From positions 77,450 to 141,449 of the forward strand of contig CAYOYN010000001.1 of NCBI GenBank assembly GCA_964408235.1: a stretch of 64,000 bases of DNA, written 5' to 3'. Position numbers and translations under genes: made by a program. Shown one piece after another: positions 39,573 to 62,967 of the stretch. Source of the stretch: Candidatus Woesearchaeota archaeon (lineage in GTDB: Archaea > Nanobdellota > Nanobdellia > Pacearchaeales > GW2011-AR1). Under the pieces are notes generated by a model that ran no database searches, was not told the origin of the DNA, and was given only the letters and a program-made list of their open reading frames with translations. Positions within the stretch are counted from its first letter, which is position 1. Each line of letters opens with the position of its first letter.

Positions 39573-39644
39573 GCGCGGGTAGTATAGTGGTTAGTATACG
39601 ACGTTGCCAACGTTGTGGCCCGGGTTCAATTCCCGGCCCGCGCA
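39573..39644 (+). tRNA. tRNA-Gly (anticodon GCC)
   Basis: Acceptor GCGCGGG/CCCGCGC. D-arm GTAT-loop-(G)TAT. Anticodon arm CGACG-TTGCCAA-CGTTG (U33, GCC, A37). T-arm CCGGG-TTCAATT-CCCGG. Discriminator A. 72 nt, no CCA. Confidence 0.8.
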
Positions 39645-39645
39645 T
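39632..39645 (+). repeat. attL core (cccggcccgcgcat) at the tRNA-Gly 3' end
   Basis: Exact 14-mer reoccurs at 61992-62005. A 14-mer offset by 2 nt reoccurs at 63255-63268. GC-rich in an AT-rich genome. Confidence 0.7.
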
Positions 39646-39784
39646 CATACCTTTCGCGCATCTTCATGCGAACTATTTGATTGTCGCGAACTTTTCTAGA
39701 GGAATTGCATATCATCGATAGCTTCCAATGTATCCGTTCACTCTCGACAATGCTTAAAAGTAAACGAGATCAGACATTAAGTCG

Positions 39785-41002
39785 ATGGCTGACAAGATCG
39801 ACCCACATAAAACTAAAGAAAGATACATGAAGTGGAAGAGTAATGTTTTAACAAATGGAATTCAAGGCTTGAATGAGGATAATTCTAAGATAATTTTGAA
39901 ATACATACAAGACATGGAGCAGGGGATTAACGTTGCTTCCACTAATAAAAGAGGGGCAAGAAGTAGTGCTAGACTAAACAGTGTAAGTACAAGACTCGTT
40001 ACAGTGGCTAAAGGATTATGGGAAAGAAGTAAGATCAATCTTTTAGAAGCAGAAGAATCTCATTTATTTGCATTTTTTGCTGATATGAGAAATGGAACTA
40101 TAAGAAAAAATAATGGTTCTTTATACAAATCTATCGCAGATTATGTAAAAGATGTAAAAGCTTTTTGGCACTGGCACATGAAAGTTAATCGTAAAAATGG
40201 AATAGAAATTAAAGATATAACTTTAGATCTCGATACTAGCAAAGAGAAGCCTGACTGGGTATACTTAACTGAAGATCAAATAAAACAACTTTGTTCTCAT
40301 GCAGACTATAAGTATGAGGTTTTAATTTGGTTTTTGTTTGATACTGGAATACGCTCACCAACAGAATTAGTAAATGTAAAAATATCTGATTTCTTTAATG
40401 ATTTTAAGGAGCTTAATATTAGGGAAGAGATTAGCAAAACCTTTGGGAGAAGAATAAAGCTTATGCTTTGTTCTAACTTAATTAAAGATTACATAAAACA
40501 ACTTAATCTAAAAACCGAAGATTACCTATTTTCTTTAGAACAAAGTGTTGCTAATAGGTATCTGAAGAATTTAGCTAAAAGAGTACTAGGTGAAGGAATT
40601 AGTCCAGCAGGTCAGAAATACTCAGAACTTACAATGTATGATTTTAGACATAACTCTTGCTGTTATTGGCTTCCTAGATATAAGTCTGAATCTGCTCTAA
40701 AATATAGATTTGGCTGGAAGAAGTCAGAGAAGATTCATTATTACTCTGAGCTCTTAGGTATGAGAGACACTATAACTCAAGATGATATGTTAGTAGATGT
40801 AACTAAGACTGAAATTGAGCAGAGATTAACCAAATCTGAAAGAGAAAAGATGTTAATGAAAGATGAAATGGTTGATATGAGAAATCAAATATTAACTATG
40901 GGTAATTTGACAAAACAAATATATTTGGTTCTTTCAGAAGAGCAGAAGGCTAAGTTAGCAATGCAGATAAAGATTAAAAAAAGTTATTTTGAAGATGGAT
41001 GA
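39785..41002 (+). CDS. int: Tyrosine recombinase / integrase
   Basis: C-terminal catalytic domain pattern: R (DTGIRSPTEL), H-x-x-R (YDFRHNSCCYW), terminal Tyr region (EKIHYYSELLG). Position next to a tRNA gene. Confidence 0.8.
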   Translation: MADKIDPHKTKERYMKWKSNVLTNGIQGLNEDNSKIILKYIQDMEQGINVASTNKRGARSSARLNSVSTRLVTVAKGLWERSKINLLEAEESHLFAFFADMRNGTIRKNNGSLYKSIADYVKDVKAFWHWHMKVNRKNGIEIKDITLDLDTSKEKPDWVYLTEDQIKQLCSHADYKYEVLIWFLFDTGIRSPTELVNVKISDFFNDFKELNIREEISKTFGRRIKLMLCSNLIKDYIKQLNLKTEDYLFSLEQSVANRYLKNLAKRVLGEGISPAGQKYSELTMYDFRHNSCCYWLPRYKSESALKYRFGWKKSEKIHYYSELLGMRDTITQDDMLVDVTKTEIEQRLTKSEREKMLMKDEMVDMRNQILTMGNLTKQIYLVLSEEQKAKLAMQIKIKKSYFEDG

Positions 41003-41031
41003 TTCAGAAGATTTGATTAATTTGACTTACT

Positions 41032-41754
41032 TCAACTTTTATCCTCCATTCCTTTTTGCAAAATCATTATCTGATCTTCTAAATGAATAAGCTCGTTTAT
41101 CTCTCTTGCATAAAGACGTTTTATTAACTCGTAAAAGCATGTATAAAATGATTTAACCCATTTATGATAAATTTCTACCACTTCTTTTAGATCAATATTT
41201 TCTTTTTTATTTTCAAGATAAGATCGTGATTCGCGACTCCATCCTTTCCAATCTAAAAGGTTGGTCTTATCAAGAAGAATATCTTGTTTATAGATTCCCT
41301 TGCCAGTCTGATTTAGTCCGGTAACAAGCATTCTTGCTGATATAAATGGTAACTTATAATGCTGAACAAAGTTTCTAAGTTCTTGAATAAAGAGAGATTT
41401 TTCATCTATTTTTAATTCTTTTACTAGTAATTTATGACCTTCAGAGAGTTTTTCATTGTTTAAGTCTCTTAAAAAATTGCGGGTGTGTTCTATTAAAGAA
41501 AATATGCTGAGAGAATAATTATGTAAAAGTCTCAACATTTCTTTTTGTAAAGAATCAAGCTTATCTCTATATTCTATAGACCAGAGATTTAAATCTTTTT
41601 CATAATCTTCAATAAGGTTCAATAAATCTTCATAATTTTTATCTAATATATACTGTGAATTTTGCAAGTTCATTACTTTATAAGTTATTTTCGTTCCTTC
41701 AAGCTGATCTCTCTTCTTAATTAATTCAATCCATAATTTAGCCCGCTCGCTCAT
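41032..41754 (-). CDS. Hypothetical protein co-transcribed with hsdM
   Basis: 240-aa ORF. 4-nt overlap with the hsdM start. Confidence 0.5.
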   Translation of the reverse strand: MSERAKLWIELIKKRDQLEGTKITYKVMNLQNSQYILDKNYEDLLNLIEDYEKDLNLWSIEYRDKLDSLQKEMLRLLHNYSLSIFSLIEHTRNFLRDLNNEKLSEGHKLLVKELKIDEKSLFIQELRNFVQHYKLPFISARMLVTGLNQTGKGIYKQDILLDKTNLLDWKGWSRESRSYLENKKENIDLKEVVEIYHKWVKSFYTCFYELIKRLYAREINELIHLEDQIMILQKGMEDKS

Positions 41755-43226
41755 ATATCTAACCCATTTAGATCTTTTATTATCTCCTCTTCTAACTCCA
41801 AGATTTTCTTCTTCAAAACTTCAGGTTTCTCATACTTTTGCTCTTCGTATTCATCTTCCTTATATTTTGAGATGGTTAAGTCAAACTCATTATCTTCAAT
41901 TTCCTTAGTCGAAACAAAGAAGTGTTTCTTTTTTCTATTAGTATTATCTTCTTCATATCTATTAGAGAATCTTTCAATTATATCAGGAATGTCATTCTTA
42001 TCAGGTTGAGGAGTTCTTTTGTCATCAAAACTATAACCGTCAGCTTGCATTTTATAAAACCAAACTTTCTGCGTAGGTTCTCCTTTTTGGAATATTAAGA
42101 TAGCAGTTTGTACTCCTGCATACGGCTTGAAAACTCCGGAAGGCATAGAAATGACTGCATCTAACCTACAGTCTTTGATAAGCAACTTTCTAATGTCTTT
42201 ATGAGATTTAGAATTACCAAATAAAACTCCTTCTGGAACAATGACTGCGCATCTTCCCGTAGGCGCTAATACTTGACGGATTAGTTCTAAAAATAATAGT
42301 TCTGTCTTCTTTGTCTTAATTTTAGACAGCCTATCACTTATTTCAGCCTCATTTATACTTCCCTTGAAAGGAGGATTCGCAAGGACTACATCAAACATGT
42401 TTACCGCTAATTTATCCTCTCCAATTTTTGATAATGTGTTAAGCCTATCTATCTTAGGCTTTTGTAAGCCGTGCATTATAAGATTCATTAAAGCTATTCT
42501 AGTCATAGTCTCATCAATATCATATCCCCAAATTGAATCGTTATCTAAGATTTCTTTCTGTTTTTGAGTTAAAGTACTAACGCCGTCTTTCTTATTGTTC
42601 TCGAGAATATATTCATAAGAGTTAACCAAAAATCCTCCAGTTCCACAAGCAGGATCTAAAATAGTCTCACCATATTTTGGTTTAACAAGATCAATCATCA
42701 TCTTGATTATGTGCCTAGGAGTTCTGAATTGTCCATTCTTACCTGAACTTTGTAACTCGCTTAGAAGATACTCATAAATGTCTCCTTGTGTATCTCGATT
42801 CTGTTCTTTAATATGCATATCGTTGATGATATTGACTGCTTCTATCAAGAGTGAAGCGGTAGGGATACCAAAATTGGCATTTTTCATATATTGAGCGTAA
42901 AGAGAATTTTCTCCGCCTAAATTTCTCATAAATGGAAATACCTTATCTCTAACGTGATCTAATATTTCCTGAGCAGGAAGGCCAGTCCATTCGTTCCATT
43001 TACAATTCTCGTGTCCTTCAAAAATAGATTTATGTTTCTTTCCCATAAAAGAAGCTTCTTGTACTTTTTTATTATCTTCGTCTTCCAATTTCTTCATAAA
43101 TATGAGATAAGACATCTGCATGATTGCTTCTATCGGGTTAGTCAATCCTCCAGACCAGAATCTATCCCATAGCTTTCTTATTTGTGATTTGAGTGTTGCG
43201 TCTAACATGTTAATAATGCCCTCCAC
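41751..43226 (-). CDS. hsdM: Type I restriction-modification system, DNA methyltransferase subunit M
   Basis: N6-adenine MTase motifs: motif I (LDPACGTGGFLV), motif IV (NPPF in VLANPPFKGS). HsdM N-terminal domain. Confidence 0.9.
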   Translation of the reverse strand: MEGIINMLDATLKSQIRKLWDRFWSGGLTNPIEAIMQMSYLIFMKKLEDEDNKKVQEASFMGKKHKSIFEGHENCKWNEWTGLPAQEILDHVRDKVFPFMRNLGGENSLYAQYMKNANFGIPTASLLIEAVNIINDMHIKEQNRDTQGDIYEYLLSELQSSGKNGQFRTPRHIIKMMIDLVKPKYGETILDPACGTGGFLVNSYEYILENNKKDGVSTLTQKQKEILDNDSIWGYDIDETMTRIALMNLIMHGLQKPKIDRLNTLSKIGEDKLAVNMFDVVLANPPFKGSINEAEISDRLSKIKTKKTELLFLELIRQVLAPTGRCAVIVPEGVLFGNSKSHKDIRKLLIKDCRLDAVISMPSGVFKPYAGVQTAILIFQKGEPTQKVWFYKMQADGYSFDDKRTPQPDKNDIPDIIERFSNRYEEDNTNRKKKHFFVSTKEIEDNEFDLTISKYKEDEYEEQKYEKPEVLKKKILELEEEIIKDLNGLDI

Positions 43227-43623
43227 TATTTCGAGTTGAAAAGTAAATTATTATAAAAATAACAACCAGTGCTGCTGAGCCTATTAAGAATATTCCTGGG
43301 AAAGTTTCATTCCAAAATCTATCAGAGGCAGCTATTTCTGCTAACTGGGCTTGCAATTTCCTATCTTGAATTTGTTGATTTAACCTTTCAACTATCGAGG
43401 TGTCTTTCGTTCTAAAACATAATCTATTTCCTTCGGTTTGAGTATAACTTACTTGAACTCCCTGTGCAGCTACCGAGATATCCGACCGACTTATATCTTC
43501 AAAACAATATTCTGGACCATTCAAGACTGTTTGAAACCATCCATCAAAACCCTGGTAGATACTGCTTCCAAAGAAGAATAAAGCAATTAATCCGCCAGCG
43601 ATTAACAACATCTTTAGATTCAT
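43210..43623 (-). CDS. Small membrane protein inserted between hsdM and hsdS
   Basis: 137 aa. N- and C-terminal TM helices. Overlaps both neighbours. Confidence 0.5.
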   Translation of the reverse strand: MNLKMLLIAGGLIALFFFGSSIYQGFDGWFQTVLNGPEYCFEDISRSDISVAAQGVQVSYTQTEGNRLCFRTKDTSIVERLNQQIQDRKLQAQLAEIAASDRFWNETFPGIFLIGSAALVVIFIIIYFSTRNSGGHY

Positions 43624-44753
43624 GATACTAGTCCTCCATTAAACGCTTTTTGCATTAATGAATTGAACATTTCCCCAATATAATCTTTGTTCTTTAGTTG
43701 TTTTTCTTTCATTTTTTCAACATGTTCAATAATTGCAGCAAATTTATTTTGAAGTTCTATTGGAGGAAGAGGTATTTTTAGAGCCTTTATCTGTTTCAAA
43801 TAAAGACCTCTAACTGTTGCAGTATTGGTTCCTCCAATCATATAAGAAGTCATATTTGGTAAAGAAAGCATAGACTCGACAAATCTAGGGTTTACCTTTG
43901 TTTTATTTAATTTGAGTAAAGCCACACTTCTAGCAAATACAAATTTATCTTTTACATCAATTCTTTTTACTCTTCCAATTGTTCCAACACAAGTAATCAA
44001 TATATCATTAAATTCTGGTAGACATCTACGTGTTATTGAACTATAAGTTTCCTCAGTAACGAATGAGTTAACCTCGAGATTTATTGAATTATTAATGTCT
44101 TTAGCAGAAATGTAGGGGATGCCTTCATCAACTAGATTCGGAGTTGAATGTTCACCATCAGTTACCTTATTACAAATTTCTTCTACTGTACTGACTCTCC
44201 ATTTTTTTTTATTGTGTAATGGATCTCCAAACATCTCATAAAACATACTCTTCTGATATTCATGTGTAAATTTATCTGCCATTTCTCTTTTTTGTTTTAA
44301 GGCTTCAGCTTTTTCGAGAATTGCGACTATTTTATTTTGGGTTTCGATAGGGGGAAGTAAAATACTAAGGTCCTTTAGAAATTTGTAATGCCTACTATAT
44401 CCGGCCGAAGGTATGTCTGCCTTTCTCAGAGCATAGTAAAAATACTTACAATGAATATTATCCTTAGGAACTAATATTTTAACTCCATCCGCTCCAATTG
44501 CAAATGGAAAATCAACAAATTTTAGAATTCTAGTGTGATCTCCAAATACTACGACTGGAAGTTTGCCTGAGTAGACTTTAGAATTATCATTGGTGTATCC
44601 GGCAATAAAATTTTCTCCTTGATCAATGATAGGATATTCACCATTATCTAGAAATTCACTTTGCGGAATTTTTAATTTATTTTCAGACGCTTCTCCTTCT
44701 AAACAATCTAAAAAATCTTCTTTCTTCCAGCTAAGTTCTTTTTCAGTTTTCAT
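43620..44753 (-). CDS. hsdS: Type I restriction-modification system, specificity subunit S
   Basis: Two target-recognition halves, each followed by conserved helical repeats (QNKIVAILEKAEALKQKR / QNKFAAIIEHVEKMKEKQ). Confidence 0.85.
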   Translation of the reverse strand: MKTEKELSWKKEDFLDCLEGEASENKLKIPQSEFLDNGEYPIIDQGENFIAGYTNDNSKVYSGKLPVVVFGDHTRILKFVDFPFAIGADGVKILVPKDNIHCKYFYYALRKADIPSAGYSRHYKFLKDLSILLPPIETQNKIVAILEKAEALKQKREMADKFTHEYQKSMFYEMFGDPLHNKKKWRVSTVEEICNKVTDGEHSTPNLVDEGIPYISAKDINNSINLEVNSFVTEETYSSITRRCLPEFNDILITCVGTIGRVKRIDVKDKFVFARSVALLKLNKTKVNPRFVESMLSLPNMTSYMIGGTNTATVRGLYLKQIKALKIPLPPIELQNKFAAIIEHVEKMKEKQLKNKDYIGEMFNSLMQKAFNGGLVS

Positions 44754-45570
44754 TTGCCTTCACCATAAATAGTTGTTTGAACATCTCGAATATTTTATTA
44801 TTAAGACCTTCAGATAAATTCAGTTTTTGATCATTAACGAGTTCTTCTTCAGCGAATCTTATTAGACTAAGGCCACTGATAGAAATTAATGCAAAACATC
44901 TGAACAAATGAGATTTTTCAGCAAATTCTTTTTCTAAATTATTCAATGCGATACTAGGGTGATGATAAAGGGACATATCTCTAAAGAATCCATCCAGCTG
45001 AGATTTCTTAATGGAATTTCCTTTAAAGGTTAAAAAATATTTCTCGATAAATTCTGGCAGATTATTTTCGTTTATATTGGGAAATAATTCGTGCCAAATT
45101 TTATGGATCTTTTCATGAGGATAGTTATCCTCTTTTAACTTAGAAAAATTATTTTTTCCACTGCTTTCATCCATAATGTCCAAGAATTTTTGATAATCTA
45201 AATTCCCCATCTTCCCACCAACGAAACCTATAGAACATAAGAAATATTTTATAGCGAGATCTTTTTTTTCATTTTCTCTCAGATGATTGTAATATACTAT
45301 ATCGGCTGATTGCTCAATAGTTACCCTTACCCATGGTTGCACCAATGGATTTTCAATATTCTCACTTAATGTTTTAAATAATTTCCAGAAGCCTTCAAAG
45401 AGATAGTAAAAAAATAAATCTGGCTCTGTTAAGATCTGTTCAACAGGCCTATTTGAAAATTTATTGTTTCTCTCCTTTAAAATATTAGTAATCTTTTGGC
45501 CAGCCCTATAAATCTCGTTTAAGACTTCTTGTGATTTTTCAATTCTATCTCCCATCATTTCATCCTCCAT
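44743..45570 (-). CDS. Hypothetical protein embedded in type I RM locus
   Basis: 275-aa soluble ORF. Overlapping starts/stops with neighbours. Confidence 0.5.
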   Translation of the reverse strand: MEDEMMGDRIEKSQEVLNEIYRAGQKITNILKERNNKFSNRPVEQILTEPDLFFYYLFEGFWKLFKTLSENIENPLVQPWVRVTIEQSADIVYYNHLRENEKKDLAIKYFLCSIGFVGGKMGNLDYQKFLDIMDESSGKNNFSKLKEDNYPHEKIHKIWHELFPNINENNLPEFIEKYFLTFKGNSIKKSQLDGFFRDMSLYHHPSIALNNLEKEFAEKSHLFRCFALISISGLSLIRFAEEELVNDQKLNLSEGLNNKIFEMFKQLFMVKANEN

Positions 45571-45941
45571 TTTGTGTATCCATCTATGGGATAAGTTGCT
45601 AGTTTTTTATTTGCTATCTTGAATCTTTCTAGATTTGATGAAGTGTTGCCTTTATTTCTAAAGTCTTGCTCTAAGTTTTTGAAATCTGCCGCCAGTTCAC
45701 GGTAGCCGTGTAGCTTCTCTATTTTCTCTTTAAAAACTAAAGGGAGGATAGTACAAATAAGAGCAAATGATCCCATAATGAATATTATCAAAGCGTTATT
45801 TATCCAATTCCCAAGAAGAATAATGCTTATAATTATTGATGCAAGAATCCATAAAGTATAAAGTAGCGAATATCTATTAGCAATCATCTCCAAGGATTCC
45901 GATATATGCAGACACTTATTGCAATTTGTATTTTTACTCAT
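45555..45941 (-). CDS. Membrane protein embedded in type I RM locus
   Basis: 128 aa, 2 TM then soluble tail. Confidence 0.45.
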   Translation of the reverse strand: MSKNTNCNKCLHISESLEMIANRYSLLYTLWILASIIISIILLGNWINNALIIFIMGSFALICTILPLVFKEKIEKLHGYRELAADFKNLEQDFRNKGNTSSNLERFKIANKKLATYPIDGYTKWRMK

Positions 45942-46153
45942 CTTTTGTTAATTGCCTCCCAAACTGAGACAATGATCATAAGAATGAATAACAATGCAAG
46001 AACTCCTCCAAGAGCACCAAATACACTAAATGCTTCAAAAAAATTAGAAATGATCCCTGAGGAAAATATTAGCCCTATAAATATGAAAAATATTATAATT
46101 CCACCTATAGCTTGCACAACATTTTCAACATCACTTCTTCCTTTCTTGTTCAT
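45938..46153 (-). CDS. Small membrane protein
   Basis: 71 aa, 2 TM. 4-nt overlaps with both neighbours on the same strand. Confidence 0.4.
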   Translation of the reverse strand: MNKKGRSDVENVVQAIGGIIIFFIFIGLIFSSGIISNFFEAFSVFGALGGVLALLFILMIIVSVWEAINKR

Positions 46154-46338
46154 CTTCGACCTCCAAGACCAAGCAAAGTAGCAATTATTGCAATTACTAT
46201 TAGAATTCCAATTATTATACCATAAAAGCCCATTGCTGAGCCGAAACCACTAATTATTTCTCCAAATGCTCCAGTTGATGCTATGAGCAGAACTACAACA
46301 ATGCCAAAAGCTAATGCGATTATTGCTTTGAGTTTCAT
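46150..46338 (-). CDS. Small membrane protein
   Basis: 62 aa, 2 TM, G/A/I-rich. Confidence 0.4.
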   Translation of the reverse strand: MKLKAIIALAFGIVVVLLIASTGAFGEIISGFGSAMGFYGIIIGILIVIAIIATLLGLGGRR

Positions 46339-46703
46339 TCTACAAAGTCCCGAGGAACAGCCACGCTATCTCCCTTATGTTTGTGTATGAGTTGCTCGCG
46401 TTCTTTGAGCTTTAATTGGATCTCTTTCTGAAGTTGCTCTAGAAACTCAGAGTTTATATCTTCTGAAACAACTGCTTCCTTACCCATATCTGTTTTGACT
46501 TTCCAGGTGAATTTGTCCAGATCAGGAATATATTCAATGAGATTTCTACCAGCTACCTGAGATACATTGCCAGTCTCAAGCATCCCTTTAACAGAGTCCC
46601 TTACAAATGTAGATACATTGTCGTATCCAATATGGTTTGCGAATTTTTTAATCGCTTCAAAGTCACCCGAGTCCCATCGAACAGCCACTACTTTATTAGT
46701 CAT
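46335..46703 (-). CDS. Hypothetical protein immediately downstream of hsdR
   Basis: 122 aa. 4-nt overlap with the next gene. Confidence 0.45.
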   Translation of the reverse strand: MTNKVVAVRWDSGDFEAIKKFANHIGYDNVSTFVRDSVKGMLETGNVSQVAGRNLIEYIPDLDKFTWKVKTDMGKEAVVSEDINSEFLEQLQKEIQLKLKEREQLIHKHKGDSVAVPRDFVE

Positions 46704-46761
46704 GCCAACTGGAGAAAATCGGACTTTATAAGCTTTATTGTAATACGGCGTATTACAACTT

Positions 46762-49543: not shown

Positions 49544-49861
49544 TTATTGGCTTTCTTTTACCTTACCCAATAGTAGAAAGATAGGAACAACCCCATTTTT
49601 TTCTAACTCATCAATTATCTTTCTCGATTCCTTAAATGAACGATTATAGAACATAGTATAACCAAAATTGCTCCTTTTTTCTCTAAGTTGAGGAAATAAA
49701 TCAATAATCTCTTTTTGTAATTGAATTACATTCCAAGAACCCAAGCTTTCCTTATAAGAAAGTCTTCCATTAATTTGGATAGTTTCCTTTGGTTCGAGAT
49801 ATGAGAGCATCTCGGATAAAAGCTCTTCTTTACTTTTCTCTTTTTGTAGTGTGTTCCTCAT
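49544..49861 (-). CDS. Hypothetical small protein, last gene of radical-SAM operon
   Basis: 105-aa ORF, 23 nt after the phosphatase gene on the same strand. Confidence 0.45.
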   Translation of the reverse strand: MRNTLQKEKSKEELLSEMLSYLEPKETIQINGRLSYKESLGSWNVIQLQKEIIDLFPQLREKRSNFGYTMFYNRSFKESRKIIDELEKNGVVPIFLLLGKVKESQ

Positions 49862-53310: not shown

Positions 53311-53350
53311 TAACCATAAATTTAAATAAAGAACTTATATTTCTCGAACT

Positions 53351-55030: not shown

Positions 55031-55130
55031 TCCTTAAGTGACAATTAGCAGTTATTTTATTTTTAATAGACGATATAATTGCATTTTATAGCTAAAAACG
55101 AGATTTTTTCAGTGCCAGCCTGTTGACACT

Positions 55131-57434
55131 TCAATTTTTGGTGACAATCCTACTAATTATGCTTGCTAAATGTCTTTTGTCATGACATTTGCCTAATTTT
55201 GAATAACTTGTTCTTAAGTTTCTATTAGTTACAACAAAAAACCACCTATCAGGATAATTTTTATTCAAATTCTCAATTTTATTTAACAAATCTTTTTGAT
55301 TATGTTTAAGCAATTTTCCTGTTTCAACTTCAATAGCATATTCTTTCCCATCAACTTTGAAAACAATATCTGGCTTAACTGTCTCAAACATCTGTACTTT
55401 ATTTGTAAACTTCTTTATGTAGTTAAAAATATCATGGGTCATGAATATATGTTGAGGACTTTCATTATCTCTTTTTTCTATAAGATATCTTTCCTTTCTT
55501 TTTGATAAGATTCCTTGAAATGAATATGGCTTGTACCCTAAGTTTTTGAGGTAGTCTATATCTTCATCAGAGAGATCCTTTAATTTAACACAACCAATAT
55601 CCTCATCAACATTTATCTGAGTCTTTTGTCTTTTTTTCTTTTCTTTAGTTTGTCGATCCATATGCTTCTGTACTTCATCTAAACGTTCTTCCTCAGTTTG
55701 AATATGTGAATTAGCAAGCAATTCATCAGGTTTCGTGGTTATAATATTATGTTCTTCTGGAGATGAAACTATCTTTATTTCTGAATGTTCGTCATCCATA
55801 ATCAAGATTCCTTCCCCGATTCCTGCAGTAAGTAAGGAATTAACTTCTGACTCGCTTAAAAAGAAGGTCTTTTGTATATTCCTTATTACTGCTGGTTTTT
55901 GTCTCATAAGCAATGTGTAAGAGCTGTTAGCCAATACAGATTTCCCAGCTTCAGATTCAAGCATGCCTTCAACTTCTTGATTAATAAGAAATAATGCAAG
56001 GTTAAACTTTCTGCAGGTTTTTACTATCTCAAAAATGTAAGATGCATCGCTAGATTGTCTCAAAAGCGACCAAGCCTCATCAATAACAAGTAACTTTCTG
56101 TTAAGATCTCTTTTCATTTTCATATAAATATAATCAAGCACCAAAAACATCATTAAAGGTTTGATTTGTTTTGGTAGATTAGCTATATTAAAACAAACAA
56201 ATTGATTATCGAAGTTAATCTTAGTTTTTTGATTAAGGAATGAAAATACTCCGTTTACATACCAATCTAAACGGCTGGTTAAACTTCTCAAAGTTTGTTT
56301 TTCAGACATGATTGTCTTCTTTTCCATATCTTTAAGGACTTTAAGCAAATCCTCTAATAATGGAGGTTTTCTACTCCAACTCTTTACTTTATTGGCATAA
56401 ATTTTCTTTTTCTGGTAAGTTTTTGTTAGGGCTCTCTCCATAATTGCTTTTTGAGGTTCTGAAAGATCTCCAAGCATGATTGGTAAAATATCCCACAATG
56501 CGAGTCTTTTTTCAGGATAATCATGTCCCATTAAATCTAATGGATTAATTATAGTTTCAGAAATTGTGCTTAAATCGATTAATTGCCCATTAAAACGCTC
56601 AACAAGGGCTTTGTATTCTCCTTGGGGATCAATAACCATTACTTTAGTGCCATTTAGTAAATACCTTGAAATTAATAGCTTTGCCATATAACTCTTACCT
56701 GAACCAGAACTAGCCAAACATAATCCATTTGGATTACTTAGATTAAAAATATCTTTTATTATGGGAATATTATTCTTATTTTGGCCAAACCAGATCCCTG
56801 TTTTATCTGCTTGAAGGAAAGAAGAAGTAAATGGGAAGAAAGCAGATAATGCTTCTGTAGGCACACTTCTAACTTGATTTAACTTGTTAATCGCTAAAGG
56901 CGAACAAGACTGAAAACCTTGAGCCATCCTAAATGTAGGTTGCCTTGGAATAATTAGAAGAGAGTTAAGTTCTGCCTGTATCCTTCTTGTCAATAAGTCT
57001 AATTCTTCCCTATTTTTAGCCCTACAGTTAAAGTATAAACTTACATTAAACAACTTATCCTTACCCTTCTGCAAGTTTGATAAAACTGCTTTAGTGTCTT
57101 TGTATTTTATTTGCAAGCTTGGGTTAAGAATATTCTTGCTTTTAGCAGAGAATAAATCTCCTCTTTGTTTTTGGAGTTCTCTATTAAGAAAAACCATCAT
57201 AGTTTCAATGTCATATGGCTCTATGTGCATTGAAAGATCAAAATTACCTGTTGTGCTAATAATCTTATCAAGAAAGCCTGTTTCTACACTTCTTGGATAG
57301 CCATGAGCGTAAATAGTCCTATTGAGAATATTAGTATGTTCATTAGAAATACTTAGATAATTAGAAGAGTTTTCTATTTTAATTGGAAAAAAGTCTAAAT
57401 TCTCATTCTTACTTTCCTTTTTCTTCCAAAACAT
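55131..57434 (-). CDS. VirB4/TrbE/CedB-like conjugation ATPase with C-terminal PD-(D/E)xK-like domain
   Basis: Walker A (LASSGSGKSYMA). VirB4-type Walker B DEAW (LLVIDEAWSLL). C-terminal ~120 aa with D-x-n-E-x-K pattern (DIVFKVDGKEYAIEVETGK). Confidence 0.75.
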   Translation of the reverse strand: MFWKKKESKNENLDFFPIKIENSSNYLSISNEHTNILNRTIYAHGYPRSVETGFLDKIISTTGNFDLSMHIEPYDIETMMVFLNRELQKQRGDLFSAKSKNILNPSLQIKYKDTKAVLSNLQKGKDKLFNVSLYFNCRAKNREELDLLTRRIQAELNSLLIIPRQPTFRMAQGFQSCSPLAINKLNQVRSVPTEALSAFFPFTSSFLQADKTGIWFGQNKNNIPIIKDIFNLSNPNGLCLASSGSGKSYMAKLLISRYLLNGTKVMVIDPQGEYKALVERFNGQLIDLSTISETIINPLDLMGHDYPEKRLALWDILPIMLGDLSEPQKAIMERALTKTYQKKKIYANKVKSWSRKPPLLEDLLKVLKDMEKKTIMSEKQTLRSLTSRLDWYVNGVFSFLNQKTKINFDNQFVCFNIANLPKQIKPLMMFLVLDYIYMKMKRDLNRKLLVIDEAWSLLRQSSDASYIFEIVKTCRKFNLALFLINQEVEGMLESEAGKSVLANSSYTLLMRQKPAVIRNIQKTFFLSESEVNSLLTAGIGEGILIMDDEHSEIKIVSSPEEHNIITTKPDELLANSHIQTEEERLDEVQKHMDRQTKEKKKRQKTQINVDEDIGCVKLKDLSDEDIDYLKNLGYKPYSFQGILSKRKERYLIEKRDNESPQHIFMTHDIFNYIKKFTNKVQMFETVKPDIVFKVDGKEYAIEVETGKLLKHNQKDLLNKIENLNKNYPDRWFFVVTNRNLRTSYSKLGKCHDKRHLASIISRIVTKN

Positions 57435-58194
57435 TCGTCACCTCCATTTTATCTCTAGAAATAAAGAATTTTCTTACCAAAGAGTCTAATTCCAAGTCAT
57501 TTAATCTAAAACTCTTTAGTCCAATATTTGCAAGTTTGCTTTGACAAATTTGTAGTTGAATATTTATATCAGATTTTTCTAAGATTACTAGATAAAATAC
57601 TCTATTCATTACATCATTCTCTTTAGCAAGAGATTCTAATTGTCTTTTATATCCCTCAAAAAGTTCTTTGAATTTTTTAGAATCGATTAACCTTTTCTTA
57701 AATTCTTCAAAATATTCAGTAAGATTAAGCTGTTCAGTACTCATTATTATCTGGACCTTGAAGTCAAGGCTATTAAGAAATTTCTGAAATGCTATAGCAA
57801 TTGCTTGTTTAGATTCTTCTGGCTTAATTGAGAAATTAATAGGGCTTATCTTTAGAATTGCTAATTTCTTGTTGTCTTTTGTAAATATTAGACTTTCTTT
57901 TATTTCCTTAATTGGGATAAATTTGCCTAACTTATTTGGTAATTGAATTAACTTCGATTTATACCAATAATACCAGTTTCTTACATGCTTATCTAATTCT
58001 AGAAAAATAAATCCTATTCCTAGGCCACTCAACATAGAAATAATTGGTATCTTTATAGCAAGATGTAGATCTGTCTTAAAAAATATAGTAAGAATAATTG
58101 GAGCAAACACAAAAAGATAAGCTAGTTGCTTAAAGTTTAGACCAAACATTATTTTTTCTTTGTATTCTAAAGATTGAGGTATCTCATAGCCCAT
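57409..58194 (-). CDS. VirB3-like membrane protein with cytoplasmic extension
   Basis: Two N-terminal TM helices. Gene immediately precedes and overlaps the VirB4-like gene by 26 nt, the canonical VirB3 position. Confidence 0.45.
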   Translation of the reverse strand: MGYEIPQSLEYKEKIMFGLNFKQLAYLFVFAPIILTIFFKTDLHLAIKIPIISMLSGLGIGFIFLELDKHVRNWYYWYKSKLIQLPNKLGKFIPIKEIKESLIFTKDNKKLAILKISPINFSIKPEESKQAIAIAFQKFLNSLDFKVQIIMSTEQLNLTEYFEEFKKRLIDSKKFKELFEGYKRQLESLAKENDVMNRVFYLVILEKSDINIQLQICQSKLANIGLKSFRLNDLELDSLVRKFFISRDKMEVTNVLEEKGK

Positions 58195-59003
58195 TATTTA
58201 TTCCACCTTCCTACTTTATTGTAAATGCTAAATGCAGCCCTTGTAATAGCAAAAAATAACAGAACAACCATTAATATATCGATGAGGAGGAATGCTGAGA
58301 TTAAGATAATAATCTGTAAATTACTGAAAACTCCGACATTCATTAATGCTGAAAATCCAATTAATAATATTGCATCAAAGAACGTTATAAAAATCGAAAT
58401 TCCTAATATATTTAGTATCAAAGAACCAAAACCCCTTAGTTTAGGTAAAAAGTAAAAGAAAATGCCTATGGGCAAAAGAACTATGCCTATTGCAACTATC
58501 GCATACCTTAAAGTTAATACAAGAGCAGTTAAAATTAATACTGCAACGTAAACTATTCCTAAACTTAATGCTAAACCAAGCCCTATTGTGCTACTTACTT
58601 GTATGCTAAAGAAATTTTCATCAACAATATTCAATGTTGCAGAAGTCATAGAAGATGCCAGATCTAAAACTAATTGGTAGAGAAAGAATGAAGATTGAAC
58701 TAAAACAATCATTATTATGATATTTCTTATCCATTCCTTTGCTGATTCTCTTTTTTCAGAATCATAACCTGAAATAAGAAAGCTTATTCCGACTCCAACT
58801 AAAAGCAACGCATAGAACATAGAAAGCATGTAGACAATAATTACCCATAAACTCAAGAAAATCTGAGTATGAACATCTGCAGATAATAAATTAAGAACTA
58901 TTTGCAAAAATGGCTGAATTGGAGCATTAACTACGTTAAATAGAAAATTAAAGAACATCTCTGGAAGACAAGCTCCAAGATTAACTAATCCACAATTAGG
59001 CAT
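58194..59003 (-). CDS. Polytopic membrane protein (VirB6/TrbL-like candidate) containing a pilin-like motif
   Basis: 6-7 TM helices. Internal DSEKRESAKEW segment paralogous to the pilin-like gene motif SDPGKRESSKN. Confidence 0.5.
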   Translation of the reverse strand: MPNCGLVNLGACLPEMFFNFLFNVVNAPIQPFLQIVLNLLSADVHTQIFLSLWVIIVYMLSMFYALLLVGVGISFLISGYDSEKRESAKEWIRNIIIMIVLVQSSFFLYQLVLDLASSMTSATLNIVDENFFSIQVSSTIGLGLALSLGIVYVAVLILTALVLTLRYAIVAIGIVLLPIGIFFYFLPKLRGFGSLILNILGISIFITFFDAILLIGFSALMNVGVFSNLQIIILISAFLLIDILMVVLLFFAITRAAFSIYNKVGRWNK

Positions 59004-59391
59004 ATTTTCTAAAAAATGAAGTCTTAGTTAGAAATGAGAATATAATATAATTAAACAAAAGAAGGATAACTATTTTAAAAAATAAAATGAATCTACTTGT
59101 TTCTATTTCATTAAGAGAAAAAGTAAAGTTTGCTTGTGCTTGAGGATAATTTGGACCTTGAGATCCTTGGAATCCGTATTCTTGATCCCATAGAATGCAA
59201 ACCGCCTCTCTTCTTTCTTGTCCAGATGTTTGGCCCCAAATATAATTGCAATCAGCCCTCTTATCCATATTAGTAAAATTAGAGCATTTCAAGTTTGAGG
59301 GACAAGCAGTAACTACTTGCAAAGGCAATAATAAAATCAAAATTCCTATTGCAAGTAAATATACTGCTTCTCTGGTTAATGGTTTATTCAT
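58996..59391 (-). CDS. Secreted Cys-rich protein with C-terminal TM anchor
   Basis: Signal peptide. 4 Cys in the mature domain. C-terminal hydrophobic helix. Confidence 0.45.
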   Translation of the reverse strand: MNKPLTREAVYLLAIGILILLLPLQVVTACPSNLKCSNFTNMDKRADCNYIWGQTSGQERREAVCILWDQEYGFQGSQGPNYPQAQANFTFSLNEIETSRFILFFKIVILLLFNYIIFSFLTKTSFFRKYA

Positions 59392-59392
59392 G

Positions 59393-59719
59393 CTAAATCA
59401 TAAACTGCACAAACCAAGGTGCTGCCCAAATTATTGCAAGTCCAATAAACACATACATAATAGTGTTCTTTGAACTTTCGCGCTTTCCAGGGTCAGAACC
59501 ACTAGTAATGTAACTAACTCCTGCAATTACAAGCATTATAACTGCAATAAAAGTCGCAGCATACTTGATTAGATTATAGATACGTATAATTGGCTCAAGT
59601 ATTGTATTGAATGTCTGTTGCTCTTCTTGGGAGATAGTTCCATTAAACTGAGCACTGACAATCTGTAAAGCAAAGATATATGCAATAATCAAAAGGCTGG
59701 CAAGTTTTTGTACTTTCAT
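59393..59719 (-). CDS. VirB2/TrbC-like conjugative pilin candidate
   Basis: Signal peptide (ASLLIIAYIFALQIVSA). Two hydrophobic helices separated by a short polar loop. ~108 aa. Heads the transfer operon. Confidence 0.5.
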   Translation of the reverse strand: MKVQKLASLLIIAYIFALQIVSAQFNGTISQEEQQTFNTILEPIIRIYNLIKYAATFIAVIMLVIAGVSYITSGSDPGKRESSKNTIMYVFIGLAIIWAAPWFVQFMI

Positions 59720-59931
59720 TCTTCCACCTCCTTTTCAGTTGATTGTTCACGCCATTCGTCCAAGTAAGCTTTAACTTTACGAAATCTCTCTAGCTGTTCC
59801 TCGAAATCGTTTTCGTACTTCCATTTTATGAAAGTTAAACAGTTTTCGCAGAACTCTCTTTCTTTAGTTTCAGCTTCGCAGATAATGCAAATTTTCATGT
59901 CTGTGCTGTGATCTAAAATGTTTATAGGCAA
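59716..59931 (-). CDS. Small zinc-finger protein
   Basis: CIICEAETKEREFCENC (CxxC...CxxC) in 71 aa. 4-nt overlap with the pilin-like gene. Confidence 0.4.
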   Translation of the reverse strand: MPINILDHSTDMKICIICEAETKEREFCENCLTFIKWKYENDFEEQLERFRKVKAYLDEWREQSTEKEVEE

Positions 59932-60682
59932 TCGGAGACCATTTAGTCAACTAACTGGACGTCTAAGTAGTCGACTAGATAGACGCCCAGTTAGTCCCCG
60001 ATTTTTTATAACTCTCAAAAAGAGAAATCCAGTTATGGAAATGAATAAGTTAATTTTAGGCGAATGCCTGGAAGTAATGAAAAATATGCCCAATCAATCT
60101 GTTGACTTAATTATTACAGATCCACCTTACGGAGATAATATTGCTTATTATGGGAATAAAACCATAGAAAATAATGAAAATCCCTTACTAAACTGTAGGG
60201 CTTTGGTTGAAGCTTACAGAATACTAAAGAAAAATAAAACAGTTTACAACTTTACTAATTGGAAACACTTGCCTTTTCTTACAGAATTTGTTACTAAATA
60301 TACCAAATTTAAGATAAGACATGTAATTGTATGGAAAAAGCCAAACTTTGGGATGGGTTATGCTTTTAGACATCAATTTGAGCTTATTCTAGTATTGGAA
60401 AAGGGAAATCCTAAATATAACCTAACAAACTTCTCAAATGTGCAGGAATCTAAGTTTATTTCAGGTAAGTCTATCCATCCTCACCAGAAACCTTTAGATC
60501 TATTGACTAAAATGGTTAAACATAGTTCAAAAGAAGGAGATTTAGTATTTGATCCATTTTGCGGAAGTGGATCTACTTGCATTTCTGCTAAAATGAATGG
60601 TAGAAACTGGCTCGGAATAGAACTAGATCAAAAATACTTACAAATTGCTAAGGAAAGGTTAGAAGAGGATCAAAATGGATAA
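59918..60682 (+). CDS. DNA methyltransferase (beta-class N4-C/N6-A, DPPY motif); real start probably at 60035
   Basis: Motif IV DPPY (LIITDPPYGD) precedes motif I (VFDPFCGSGSTCI). Listed ORF starts at 59918, but the first 39 residues are Arg/Pro-rich and run through the dyad. MEMNKLILGECLE at 60035 is the likely start. Confidence 0.75.
   Translation: MFIGNRRPFSQLTGRLSSRLDRRPVSPRFFITLKKRNPVMEMNKLILGECLEVMKNMPNQSVDLIITDPPYGDNIAYYGNKTIENNENPLLNCRALVEAYRILKKNKTVYNFTNWKHLPFLTEFVTKYTKFKIRHVIVWKKPNFGMGYAFRHQFELILVLEKGNPKYNLTNFSNVQESKFISGKSIHPHQKPLDLLTKMVKHSSKEGDLVFDPFCGSGSTCISAKMNGRNWLGIELDQKYLQIAKERLEEDQNG
59950..59995. promoter_or_regulatory. 46-bp perfectly centred dyad: 12-bp inverted arms flanking a 10-bp palindrome
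   Basis: ACTAACTGGACG (59950-59961) and CGCCCAGTTAGT (59984-59995; 11/12 complementary) flank TAGTCGACTA (59968-59977). All share a centre at 59972.5. Lies between the divergent transfer operon and the MTase gene. Confidence 0.5.
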
Positions 60683-60810
60683 TCTCCGATTAGATGAAAC
60701 TGATTCCGAGTATATTATTTGGATGCTTAAGGAGATACTTAGATACTTGAAGGAAAAACAGGTAAATCTACAATAAGGAAGATTATTAAGTCTTAATTCT
60801 ATCTTAAATA

Positions 60811-61230
60811 ATGCTTGATGGTGTATGGCTTGCAATTTTAGCAATAATTGTTTTTTTATTAATGTTTTATTTTATGTTTAATAAAAATAAGATTAATAGA
60901 CCAATTATTAAAATTGGAACTGTCTGGAAATGGGTAATAGGTTTCGGAATTTATGCATTAATTTCCTTTTTATTTGGTCTTATGGTTTATGACGGCTCTT
61001 CTGGAGAAGGTGGACCACTATATGTATTATGGTTGCCTCCTTTTTGGCCATTAATACCATTTACTATTTTTTCTTCAATGATAGTCGCTTCACTAAATTT
61101 ACACTCGTATTTACCACCAGATGCTTCTGATCTTATAGCTCTTTTTCTTAATATAATTTGGTCTGCGTTAATAGGATTTTTAATTGGTAAATTAATAGTT
61201 AAAGTAAGGAGAAAAAATAATGAAAAATAA
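60811..61230 (+). CDS. Small polytopic membrane protein, paralogue 1 of 3
   Basis: 4 TM. Shares a DGSSGEGGP loop motif and basic C-terminus with the next two genes. Confidence 0.5.
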   Translation: MLDGVWLAILAIIVFLLMFYFMFNKNKINRPIIKIGTVWKWVIGFGIYALISFLFGLMVYDGSSGEGGPLYVLWLPPFWPLIPFTIFSSMIVASLNLHSYLPPDASDLIALFLNIIWSALIGFLIGKLIVKVRRKNNEK

Positions 61231-61639
61231 CCTAATTTGGATTTTACTTGGATCAGTGATTTTTGGTTTAGCTGGTTTCTTAGTTTCAAGTAACCCTCTT
61301 GTTTACTTCTTAACTTTTCTTCCGGGAGCTCTTCTAGCATCTTCATTTTATGGTGGAGAAATTCCATTTATTACTTATGGAGCATTAATTAGCGGTTTAA
61401 TCTTTTGGGCAATTATCTCTTGGATAATATACTTTTCATTAAATAAATTTAGATCTAATTTAGATTACGCAATGCTTTCCTTAATTTTTGTAATATTTTG
61501 GCCAATTGGAGTTGCTATGGGAATTAATTTCTCGCAGTTTGCTTATTGGACAGATAATATTTCATATGTGCTTATGGGAATACCTCTAATTTCAGCAGTT
61601 GCTATTTTATTAGGTTTATGGAGAAAATTTAGAAAATGA
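61220..61639 (+). CDS. Small polytopic membrane protein, paralogue 2 of 3
   Basis: MKNNLIWILLGS start. 4 TM. Overlaps both neighbours. Confidence 0.5.
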   Translation: MKNNLIWILLGSVIFGLAGFLVSSNPLVYFLTFLPGALLASSFYGGEIPFITYGALISGLIFWAIISWIIYFSLNKFRSNLDYAMLSLIFVIFWPIGVAMGINFSQFAYWTDNISYVLMGIPLISAVAILLGLWRKFRK

Positions 61640-61956
61640 AAAATAAAATAACTTGGATATTTGGCTCTATTTTTGGACTTTATGCTTTATCTTATGTTTT
61701 GGCAGGCTATTATGGAGTAATCCATTACGGAAATTACTATGAACTATTAAATAAACCAATTTTCTTTCTGGTTAGTATTTCTTTTTATGTTATAGCTGTT
61801 CCTTTTTATTTTTCAGGTTTAATTCCTGGAGATGGTTCTGGACCTATAGATCGTTTTTGGATTGAAGGGGTTATTCTTCCAATTCTTATTATAACAATAT
61901 GGACTTTGTTCGGAATGGTCATCGGCTGGTTAATTCAAAAGAGACAAGAGAAATAG
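61636..61956 (+). CDS. Small polytopic membrane protein, paralogue 3 of 3
   Basis: MKNKITWIFGS start. GDGSGPID loop motif. Basic C-terminus (QKRQEK). Confidence 0.5.
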   Translation: MKNKITWIFGSIFGLYALSYVLAGYYGVIHYGNYYELLNKPIFFLVSISFYVIAVPFYFSGLIPGDGSGPIDRFWIEGVILPILIITIWTLFGMVIGWLIQKRQEK

Positions 61957-61991
61957 AATAGTTCCCATCAGGATGCGCGGAATGTATTGAA

Positions 61992-62005
61992 CCCGGCCCG
62001 CGCAT
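61992..62005 (+). repeat. attR-like direct repeat of tRNA-Gly 3' end (cccggcccgcgcat) inside an 8-bp-stem hairpin
   Basis: Exact 14-nt match to 39632-39645. Embedded in atgcgcgg...ccgcgcat inverted repeat (61981-62005). Confidence 0.65.
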
Positions 62006-62966: not shown

Positions 62967-62967
62967 A

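Follow-up and report, generated by a model that had tools for sequence, protein, structure and literature searches.

A 22.4-kb integrase-bearing island with a reduced set of type IV secretion genes at a tRNA-Gly gene of a DPANN archaeon

DPANN archaea make up a large and mostly uncultured share of the archaea, with tiny genomes and a dependence on hosts, and little is known of how they exchange genes. We analyzed a stretch of 64,000 nucleotides from a Candidatus Woesearchaeota archaeon (contig CAYOYN010000001.1, positions 77,450 to 141,449; hereafter the window), in which a block of 22.4 kb stands directly behind a tRNA-Gly gene and carries a tyrosine integrase gene together with genes for a type IV secretion system (T4SS). 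The question raised by this locus is whether the block is a mobile element and, further, whether a VirB2/3/4/6 apparatus free of relaxase and coupling protein can move DNA or serves the contact between symbiont and host. We conclude that the sequence from 39646 to 62005 is almost certainly an integrase-driven mobile island. For the second part of the question we favor, with a probability of roughly 0.6, a full cycle resembling that of an integrative and conjugative element (ICE), in which a circle excised by the integrase would be transferred by the T4SS of the element and re-integrated at tRNA-Gly. Integration at a tRNA gene is in itself textbook knowledge, and the interest of the locus lies in the host group, the size of what appears to be an undescribed family, and the minimal apparatus.

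Junctions and integrase of the island

The tRNA-Gly(GCC) gene that served as integration target was recognized by both ARAGORN and Rfam (66.2 bits) at 39573-39644 on the forward strand. The 14-mer CCCGGCCCGCGCAT, which consists of the final 13 nt of the tRNA and one further base, was found as an exact copy at 39632-39645 (the attL core, forward strand) and again at 61992-62005, as the initial annotation of the window had reported. A third and degenerate copy, TGCGGCCCGCGCAT (12/14), absent from the initial annotation, was located at 63253-63266. When up to two mismatches were allowed, the core matched three times in the 64-kb window, compared with an average of 0.01 over 100 shuffles that preserved dinucleotides, none of which reached three matches. 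As all three copies lie at the tRNA-Gly locus, the motif is not a dispersed one, a possibility that had been raised as an objection to the repeat. The spacing of tRNA and integrase was also as first described, with the tRNA ending at 39644 and a 405-aa open reading frame (ORF) starting 140 nt further on, at 39785.

Evidence for mobility came from related strains. The contig L033 (Logan DRR685535) opens with the sequence tggcccgggttcaattCCCGGCCCGCGCATatggaacttttgtc, and its nucleotides 1-30 matched window positions 39616-39645 at 100%, corresponding to the T-arm and acceptor end of the tRNA, while its nucleotides 17-1294 matched 61992-63269 at 99.9% identity. The 14-mer is precisely the stretch that the two alignments share, so the tRNA end and the right flank are joined in this strain and the 22.4 kb between them are missing. 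Because only 30 nt of the tRNA are present, we describe this as an attB-type junction rather than a complete empty site; an intact tRNA upstream of the junction is likely. The initial annotation had proposed a comparison with genomes lacking the insertion, and this comparison was answered in part, by an attB-like junction in a strain 99.9% identical to the window, with the complete site not seen.

Other samples showed different occupants at the same positions. The left flanks of the conspecific contigs L046, L048, L050, and L051, all from other samples, were about 98.8% identical to the window and diverged exactly after 39646, where an unrelated 3.8-kb segment was observed in place of the element; the alignment of L046 to the window resumed at 62675. 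A second type of arrangement was observed in L035 (JGI 3300045379), which was 100% identical to the last 1.85 kb of the element (60157-62005) and continued directly past the core at 62005 into a different element, opening with an 80%-identical integrase. L025 (GCA_053576675.1) was 99.5% identical to the window from 61991 onward, with unrelated sequence and a degenerate core (CACGGCCAGCGCAT) upstream. Two contigs began at core copies, namely L027, which starts exactly at 61992 (the second copy), and L026, which starts at 63255, two bases inside the third copy. The element ends themselves were observed at 100% identity, with both junctions intact, in L029 and L032 (SRR12487035).

Aligned with one another, as had been suggested at the outset, the junctions displayed the classical attL/attR/attB pattern. 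The attL junction reads GGTTCAATTCCCGGCCCGCGCATCATACCTTTCGCGC, the attR junction GAATGTATTGAACCCGGCCCGCGCATATGGAACTTTTGTC, and the attB-type junction GGTTCAATTCCCGGCCCGCGCATATGGAACTTTTGTC, and the predicted attP junction is GAATGTATTGAACCCGGCCCGCGCATCATACCTTTCGCGC. The integration boundaries and the presence or absence of the element among strains are thus placed by nucleotide-precise junctions. Related strains carrying the same genes at this locus without flanking repeats, which would speak against an insertion, were not found, and the claim of an integrative element held firm, given the attB-like junction and the divergences falling exactly after 39646 or after 62005. The locus represents a cleanly delimited DPANN mobile element for which occupied, empty-type, and alternatively occupied natural alleles are available.

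The gene behind the tRNA (39785-41002, forward strand) encodes a tyrosine recombinase of 405 aa, identified by superfamily models, by its residues, and by its two-domain fold. The window protein itself had no Pfam match at E<=0.01 and a weak NCBIfam match to integron integrases (3e-4), and its match to PHROG_1 'integrase' had an E-value of 2.6e-14. The homologues numbered more than 2,200; the best 120 were at least 57% identical, and the taxon-named sources among these 120 were Pacearchaeota, Nanoarchaeota, Nanobdellota, or unclassified archaeal metagenome-assembled genomes (MAGs). PF00589 was matched by 9 of 30 aligned homologues (>=57% identity), with a best value of 1.9e-10, and the family profile matched archaeal XerA (4a8e) over the Arg-I and HxxR boxes. 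An AlphaFold model of the integrase had a mean pLDDT of 75, with low confidence in the segment 296-343 that includes W311 and Y319/320. The best 50 Foldseek matches of the model in the PDB were all tyrosine recombinases, e.g. XerA, Cre, Tn1549 Int, XerH, lambda Int, and IntI4, with a probability of 1.00. Residues R190, K218, Y285, R288, H289, W311, H318, Y319, and Y320 were invariant in the 30-member alignment, and the catalytic pattern R...K...H-x-x-R...H/W...Y is present, with Tyr taking the place of the first His in Y285-D-F-R288-H289.

The integrase ORF is intact and of full length relative to homologues of 380-400 aa. Since the gene is not split by integration, the integrase is of the pNOB8 (non-partitioning) kind, as opposed to the SSV type; of these two types of archaeal integrases (PMC7253208), the former has its att site outside the int gene, and int stays intact. 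A 67%-identical integrase was observed in L008 (3190-4770) behind a different tRNA-like 3' end core, CCCGGCAGGGGCAT, with an arm conserved between L008 and the window, which suggests that target switching may have occurred within the integrase family.

The strain comparisons also bear on whether the island is still mobile. It might be decayed and immobile, with an integrase or sites that no longer work and with the strain differences reflecting old events or homologous recombination of the flanks, a reading that agrees with the many relics observed (the degenerate third core, the degenerate core of L025, and a deletion derivative in L012, described below) and with the fact that no attP form was found. 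However, all of the catalogued ORFs of the element (27/27) are uninterrupted, the two outer cores are perfect (14/14), and the catalytic residues of the integrase are invariant across the family. Moreover, the contigs covering the element ends in another sample (L029, L032) are 100% identical, an identical right end occurs in another tandem context (L035), and the element is absent from a 99.9%-identical strain. Intact ORFs, perfect cores, identical copies, and absence from a strain together indicate recent movement, and we consider a decayed island improbable.

A provirus or virus satellite integrated at the tRNA was also considered, given that tRNA integration by a tyrosine integrase and the carriage of defense genes are typical of proviruses and satellites too, and that the integrase matches PHROG_1. 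Against this, neither genes for capsid, portal, or terminase nor any other virion gene turned up with Pfam or PHROGs, the integrase had no match among 50,697 phage records, the right-end att motif had no match in IMG/VR, and a T4SS cluster is present instead. With virion genes missing and the phage collection giving no integrase match, we rejected a provirus as extremely improbable.

Both ends of the mobile island contain repeats that may be functional. The non-coding integrase-proximal arm (39646-39784, forward strand) and its border with the core hold a direct repeat, CGCGCATC, at 39639-46 and 39655-62, GCGAAC-containing direct repeats (GCGAACTATT/GCGAACTTTT) at 39668 and 39686, and an inverted repeat upstream of int (ATTGTCGCGA/TCTCGACAAT, 39680-89/39742-51). 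We regard these as candidate integrase-binding and int-promoter sequences; the non-coding sequence of this arm is kept in the sister elements of L012, L035 (the P0002 element, see below), and L008. The right end, which includes the attR core (61973-62005, forward strand), forms a perfect inverted repeat of ATGCGCGG (61973-80) and CCGCGCAT (61998-62005) that may be an integrase-binding or regulatory site, and its sequence is kept in L003, L044, L045, and L043. A composition scan gave no step in GC content at the left or right element boundary, and a scan for sigma-70 promoters and terminators was uninformative, the host being an archaeon.

Some features of the target gene varied among relatives. 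The tRNA-Gly(GCC) of the window, L012, and L046 has no intron, and the orthologous genes of L002, L003, L005, L006, L041, and L044 contain an intron of about 21-23 nt just past the anticodon; ARAGORN reported these intron-bearing orthologues as 93 nt long or with a 4-nt anticodon. A divergent tRNA-Val gene lies next to tRNA-Gly in the window, at 39440-39511 on the reverse strand (ARAGORN, Rfam).

Type IV secretion genes and the case for self-transfer

The T4SS cluster (55131-59931, reverse strand) encodes six proteins. The largest is a VirB4-type ATPase of 767 aa (55131-57434, reverse strand) resembling those of the MPF-FATA class of mating-pair formation systems, with a Walker A motif at residue 241 and a match to Pfam P-loop_TraG. 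Its NCBIfam matches were to the CD1110 family (7e-87) and the Mycoplasma-ICE family Mbov_0397 (5e-75), with CedD matching at only 6.6e-13, and its score fell short of the NCBIfam cut-offs (292 vs 325 bits). Among catalogued plasmid proteins, the VirB4 sequences nearest to it were of CD1110 type from Firmicutes and Actinobacteria, at 27-32% identity. More than 1,200 VirB4 homologues were found, and the taxon-named ones among the best 120 were all from DPANN archaea.

Next to the ATPase gene lies the gene for a 261-aa protein with two transmembrane (TM) segments (57409-58194, reverse strand), in which VirB3 (PrgI) is fused to a TrsD/TraC-like N-domain of VirB4 (Pfam PrgI, NCBIfam TrsD). Most VirB4 relatives are VirB3-VirB4 fusions of about 990 aa. 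A split into proteins of about 260 and 770 aa was observed in the window, in its 14 closest VirB4 relatives, and in L039 and L041, and as it is shared by these 14 relatives we do not regard the split gene as a pseudogene.

The adjoining gene encodes a polytopic membrane protein of 269 aa with six predicted TM segments (58194-59003, reverse strand), which is probably VirB6-like, judging from its position, its topology, the TrbL_3 match of an orthologue, and its similarity to the pilin. The TrbL_3 match, a weak one, belongs to a 79%-identical orthologue. The similarity to the pilin consists of a shared motif, SG.D..KRES.K (40% over 35 aa, E=1.3e-4), and this local likeness echoes the relationship between VirB2 and VirB6, and between CedA1 and CedA, that was reported by Beltran et al. 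(PMC9905601).

Three smaller genes complete the cluster. A Cys-rich membrane or secreted protein of 131 aa (58996-59391, reverse strand) is conserved in the T4SS cluster, and the 108-aa protein beside it (59393-59719, reverse strand) is a VirB2/TrbC-type pilin, matching Pfam T4SS_pilin (1.4e-14) and TrbC (3.6e-8) and the NCBIfam Mbov_0395 pilin-like family. The operon is headed by a small protein with two CxxC pairs (59716-59931, reverse strand), conserved in L039 and L041 and zinc-ribbon-like by eye, with a weak match as its sole Pfam zinc-ribbon match. Divergent from the operon is the gene of an orphan N4/N6 DNA methyltransferase (59918-60682, forward strand; Pfam N6_N4_Mtase, 3.3e-36), of which L039 and L041 carry orthologues at the same position with 81-83% identity.

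In the reading that we favor, the tyrosine recombinase recombined the attP core of a circle with the matching 14 bp that close the tRNA-Gly(GCC) gene. The core was thereby duplicated as attL and attR, and the tRNA gene stays intact through a replacement tRNA end supplied by the element. Insertion next to an older integrase-less relic with a degenerate core produced a tandem array. For onward movement in an ICE-like cycle, Int would excise the element to a circle, the circle would pass to another Pacearchaeota cell via the minimal T4SS of the element, and re-integration would follow at tRNA-Gly, with the methyltransferase and restriction-modification (RM) genes protecting and stabilizing the element. 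Insertion at the tRNA-Gly end with a 14-bp duplication, gain and loss among strains, and tandem accretion are shown by the sequences. We infer excision, circularization, conjugative transfer, and the integrase-bound sequences, and self-transfer is put forward at this level because neither a coupling protein nor a relaxase is encoded. The cycle is favored by the T4SS traveling with the integrase in three elements and by conspecifics doing without a T4SS at the locus. It is also favored by the general lack of relaxases in the archaeal conjugative elements described so far (PMC9905601, PMC6563490), so that a missing relaxase does not exclude an archaeal-style mechanism (PMC9905601).

Several observations weigh against such a cycle. 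No coupling ATPase was found in the element, where the Walker A motif occurs only in VirB4 and in a kinase-like AAA_28 protein, and the Pfam, NCBIfam, and PHROGs scans detected no gene for a relaxase, for replication, or for partition. The 269-aa protein assigned to VirB6 had no direct match in Pfam (E<=5) and no profile match in the PDB. Neither an excised attP junction nor a circular contig was found: the pattern of right end plus core had 0 matches in viral contigs (IMG/VR) and three in metagenome contigs (Hainich groundwater), all three of them attR-type junctions to other units, and the excised form that the initial annotation had suggested looking for therefore did not appear in the contig scans. 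The tRNA stretch in L033 ends with the contig after its 30 nt. We also observed T4SS clusters in the distant Pacearchaeota L052 (GCA_964573625.1) and L053, comprising pilin, VirB6-like, and VirB3-VirB4 genes, with no integrase homologue within 10 kb; the cluster of L052 lies near the thermosome gene on the 5' side of tRNA-Gly, and that of L053 abuts an island of type I RM, Vsr, and DNA-methylase genes. Lastly, the T4SS of Patescibacteria was essential for epibiotic growth in one strain tested, and not for conjugation (PMC12102498).

These points lead to a different reading, in which the island is genuine and integrase-driven but not conjugative, and VirB2/3/4/6 would be an apparatus for contact or uptake carried as cargo. 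Such an apparatus might serve symbiont-host contact, a role also proposed for the T4SS of Patescibacteria, or Ced/Ted-like DNA import, and the island might spread by vesicles, by uptake and recombination, or through mobilization by another element. Besides the missing coupling protein and relaxase, this reading draws on the repertoire of the cluster, which is that of the chromosomal T4SS of Patescibacteria (usually without a nearby relaxase), and on the VirB4-type ATPases of nanohaloarchaea that have been proposed to act in host interaction (PMC10266531). Sister VirB4 clusters adjoin FG-GAP or beta-helix proteins of 975-1038 aa, which may be surface proteins, and the integrase-free clusters of the distant Pacearchaeota seem to be chromosomal. 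On the other hand, the cluster is linked to an integrase inside att-bounded units in three elements and travels with an orphan DNA methyltransferase, and its VirB4 is far closer to the conjugative CD1110 family (7e-87) than to CedD (6.6e-13). An essential contact organelle is hard to reconcile with conspecifics that do without it at the locus, unless they hold a copy elsewhere. We regard a non-conjugative island as a serious possibility, if on balance an unlikely one.

The designation as a conjugative or mobilizable element, made in the initial annotation, is thus upheld for the integrase-driven movement and the VirB4-type T4SS genes, and falls short for the coupling ATPase and relaxase. Relative to a bacterial ICE as defined in CONJScan style, the element has site-specific integration with repeats and a VirB4 with membrane T4SS components, and lacks a coupling protein (VirD4/TraG/TcpA) and a relaxase.

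A Pacearchaeota family and its relation to known systems

The element is a member of a large family in Pacearchaeota that combines a fixed backbone with swappable cargo, often related to defense. The shared backbone comprises Int, a 105-aa protein, the T4SS cluster with its small CxxC protein, the orphan methyltransferase, and some of the small membrane proteins. Two relatives illustrate the exchange of cargo. The P0002/P0123 element (L034/L035 and L039), with an Int 80% and a VirB4 77% identical to those of the window, begins with a core followed by Int, an HTH protein, a ThsB-like TIR protein, 8xMP, a helicase and methyltransferase, and an FG-GAP protein of 975 aa; further genes, the VirB4 cluster, the orphan methyltransferase, UDG, and small membrane proteins then lead to the next core. 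The P0006/P0128 element (L037 and L041; 674-kb contig Ga0172278_1397, JGI 3300013121), with an Int 69% and a VirB4 73% identical, contains Int, a MORC-like ATPase and Dam methyltransferase, a beta-helix protein of 1038 aa, and the VirB4-methyltransferase block. This second unit is flanked by tRNA-Gly and, about 25 kb further on, by the following core copy, and it adjoins the same GGDEF, hydrolase, and thermosome genes that form the right flank in the window.

The orientation of the backbone differed in the P0006/P0128 element, where the segment from Int to the T4SS is inverted relative to the tRNA when compared with the window, and a gene for an S8 peptidase stands between Int and the distal core. 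This could result from an internal inversion, or a partly palindromic core could allow integration in both orientations.

Proteins 70-73% identical to the 105-aa backbone protein (49544-49861, reverse strand) are encoded in the P0002 and P0006 elements. A total of 22 homologues were found, of which two were named, both from Pacearchaeota or Nanoarchaeota MAGs. A structure model was too poor for use (pLDDT 53); speculatively, the protein may be a regulator or an excision factor.

The host was assigned from the flanks of the window, whose source was traced to a 137-kb metagenome contig (ENA ERZ4216102 NODE_27). Housekeeping genes of archaeal type lie in these flanks (for the ribosomal proteins L10e/L16 and L35Ae, pyruvate phosphate dikinase, and the thermosome), and one flanking gene of 606 aa matched only MAGs labeled Pacearchaeota, Woesearchaeota, Nanoarchaeota, or Parvarchaeum, at identities of up to 93%, from which we place the host among DPANN archaea of the Pacearchaeota/Woesearchaeota type. 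Of these relatives L012 was the closest, aligning collinearly with the window for about 12.7 kb of the retrieved locus, with 83-86% of nucleotides identical. A thaumarchaeal host, suggested by the AT-rich composition, was ruled out by the matches of the 606-aa gene.

Among the systems described, thaumarchaeal ICEs such as NCAV2-E1/E2 and NitEve-E6, with a median size of 64 kb and att repeats of 17 bp in the median (Krupovic et al. 2019, PMC6563490), are similar in many respects. They too are archaeal, use a tyrosine recombinase and short att repeats, often at tRNA genes, and have no relaxase, and they share homologues of VirB4, VirB3, and VirB6, a variable cargo, and tandem or nested arrangements. 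However, most thaumarchaeal ICEs encode a VirD4/TraG coupling ATPase, all encode TFIIB, mostly next to a ParB-like gene, and they often have the ATPases TadC, FlaI, and PilT; none of these was detected in our element. Here VirB4 is the only T4SS ATPase, no match to TFIIB or ParB was found, and at 22.4 kb the element reaches about one third of the thaumarchaeal median. It also differs in the host phylum and in having a recognizable VirB2/TrbC pilin.

The T4SS of Patescibacteria (candidate phyla radiation, CPR) is similarly reduced, consisting of VirB4, TrsD, PrgI/VirB3, VirB6, and a pilin resembling VirB2 (PF18895/PF04956); a relaxase or coupling protein is usually missing from its surroundings, and its hosts are ultrasmall episymbionts (PMC12102498). 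These bacterial systems are encoded on the chromosome, in many cases close to the origin of replication, and VirB3-VirB4 fusions were not seen in them (PMC12102498), whereas the cluster studied here is archaeal and sits in a strain-variable, att-bounded island, and most of its archaeal relatives have VirB3 and VirB4 fused. The ICEs and plasmids of MPF-FATA type in Firmicutes, Actinobacteria, and Mollicutes gave the best family-level matches for VirB4, the pilin-like protein, and PrgI, and share with the island the arrangement of an integrase-bearing element that targets a tRNA 3' end; relaxase and coupling protein, both present in the bacterial members, were not found in the element. The reduced set of the Patescibacteria type or MPF-FATA (VirB4, TrsD, PrgI (VirB3), a VirB2-like pilin, and no relaxase or type IV coupling protein nearby) was observed, with the VirB6-like protein as a probable further component, and judged by predicted gene content the T4SS is closest to this type.

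The Ced and Ted systems of Sulfolobales and Thermoproteales resemble the cluster in being minimal sets of VirB4-like, VirB6-like, and VirB2-like proteins without relaxase or coupling protein, but they are chromosomal rather than carried on integrative elements, and they import DNA (PMC9905601). We did not assign the cluster to them, as the only match was one to CedD (6.6e-13), far weaker than those to the VirB4 families, and the locus lies in a mobile island.

Elements of this kind had been called poorly catalogued in archaea. For Sulfolobales and Thaumarchaeota, archaeal ICEs have already been catalogued (PMC6563490, PMC9905601), but for DPANN a full-text literature search of incomplete coverage found no description of an ICE-like element or of such a T4SS family. 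We tentatively suggest that the element may belong to a large, undescribed family of self-transmissible elements of DPANN archaea (Pacearchaeota), with VirB2/3/4/6-based transfer of Int-excised circles free of relaxase and coupling protein, that shuttles defense systems between strains and, in the case of the sister elements, large proteins with repeat domains that may be surface proteins; as a whole this proposal is a conjecture that we think somewhat less probable than its opposite. If it is true, ultrasmall episymbiotic archaea would possess a conjugation system of their own, akin to the T4SS of Patescibacteria, which are just as reduced, and the tRNA-Gly hotspot would be a natural entry point for DPANN genetic tools. 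The integrase and its 14-bp site in tRNA-Gly are also a candidate means of DNA insertion in these archaea, which are genetically intractable.

The tandem array and the cargo genes

The island is followed in the window by a second, smaller unit. Sequence past the third core copy (tatttatataaaatc...) matched that past the distal core copy of L012 (tatttttataaaatc...), and both lead into an OmdA-like gene; from this shared flank, the chromosome proper resumes at 63267. The 1.26-kb unit in between (62006-63266, forward strand) is flanked by att cores (14/14 and 12/14) and contains no integrase or transfer genes, as expected for a relic resembling a cis-mobilizable element (CIME). It carries a 157-aa ORF (62092-62565), a DUF7557 antitoxin-like gene (62730-62966), and a ParE-like toxin gene (62968-63216), all on the forward strand.

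Arrays were also observed in relatives, with three core copies each in L002, L003, and L044, and two in L012 together with right-end relics. In the L012 unit the left arm is kept for its first 70 nt and then continues into a sequence corresponding to window positions 60712-60756, downstream of the methyltransferase gene; the island of L012 is apparently derived by deletion from a window-type element, with Int through the methyltransferase lost. In L033 (1281-1309) the third core copy is perfect and is followed by another unit (tgttgacattttgtccc...) that resembles a left end in L002 (5234), so the hotspot is occupied further downstream even in the strain with the attB-type junction.

Such arrangements have been described by the ICE-CIME accretion model in streptococci (ICESt1/ICESt3; PMC5704250). 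There, too, an integrase element at the 3' end of a target gene adjoins a decayed unit that has kept its att sites and is devoid of integrase and transfer genes, and arrays form at one hotspot. The streptococcal case is bacterial and was demonstrated experimentally, whereas the outer core of the relic described here is degenerate (12/14) and the array is known from sequence. With this difference, the arrangement of the locus agrees with tandem accretion as in the ICE-CIME model.

The cargo of the island was largely as first listed. The type I RM system, the radical-SAM operon, the VirB4 module, and the orphan methyltransferase were all confirmed, and the membrane proteins that had been described as paralogues showed no detectable relationship to one another by BLASTP (E >= 0.12). 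The RM block (41751-49497, reverse strand) encodes all three subunits of a type I system, identified with Pfam: hsdM (41751-43226; N6_Mtase/HsdM_N), hsdS (43620-44753; Methylase_S), and hsdR (46762-49497; ResIII/EcoEI_R_C/HSDR_N), each on the reverse strand. A 137-aa ORF with two TM segments (43210-43623) separates hsdM from hsdS, and hsdS is followed by five small ORFs (44743-46703) before hsdR, all on the same strand, a layout that is unusual for a type I operon. Between the integrase gene and this block is a gene for a 240-aa protein of unknown function (41032-41754, reverse strand) that is not conserved in sister elements and had no match in Pfam, NCBIfam, PHROGs, or PADLOC. Nine unknown ORFs were likewise without a match in PHROGs.

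A five-gene operon (49885-53239, reverse strand; Pfam, NCBIfam) encodes a CobC-like histidine phosphatase, a CYTH (CyaB-like) protein, an AAA_28 P-loop protein, a TIGR04282/DUF2064-like protein, and a MoaA-like radical-SAM protein. Divergent from it are the genes of a 309-aa protein with an AbrB/MazE-like N-terminus and of a NUDIX hydrolase (53351-54807, forward strand; Pfam). Together these genes look like a pathway that modifies a nucleotide. The CYTH protein passes the NCBIfam cut-off for class IV adenylate cyclases (59.2 vs 57.95 bits), and a 77%-identical CYTH gene was observed in L006, where it adjoins a YdjM-like flanking gene outside any integrase-bearing element. PADLOC matched the radical-SAM protein to pVip, more weakly than MoaA did, and gave a weak match for the NUDIX protein; as the pVip match is generic and weaker than that to MoaA, we did not call the operon a known defense system. 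Near the right end of the island, three small proteins of 139, 139, and 106 aa with multiple predicted TM segments are encoded at 60811-61956 on the forward strand, and homologues of two of the three were observed in L039.

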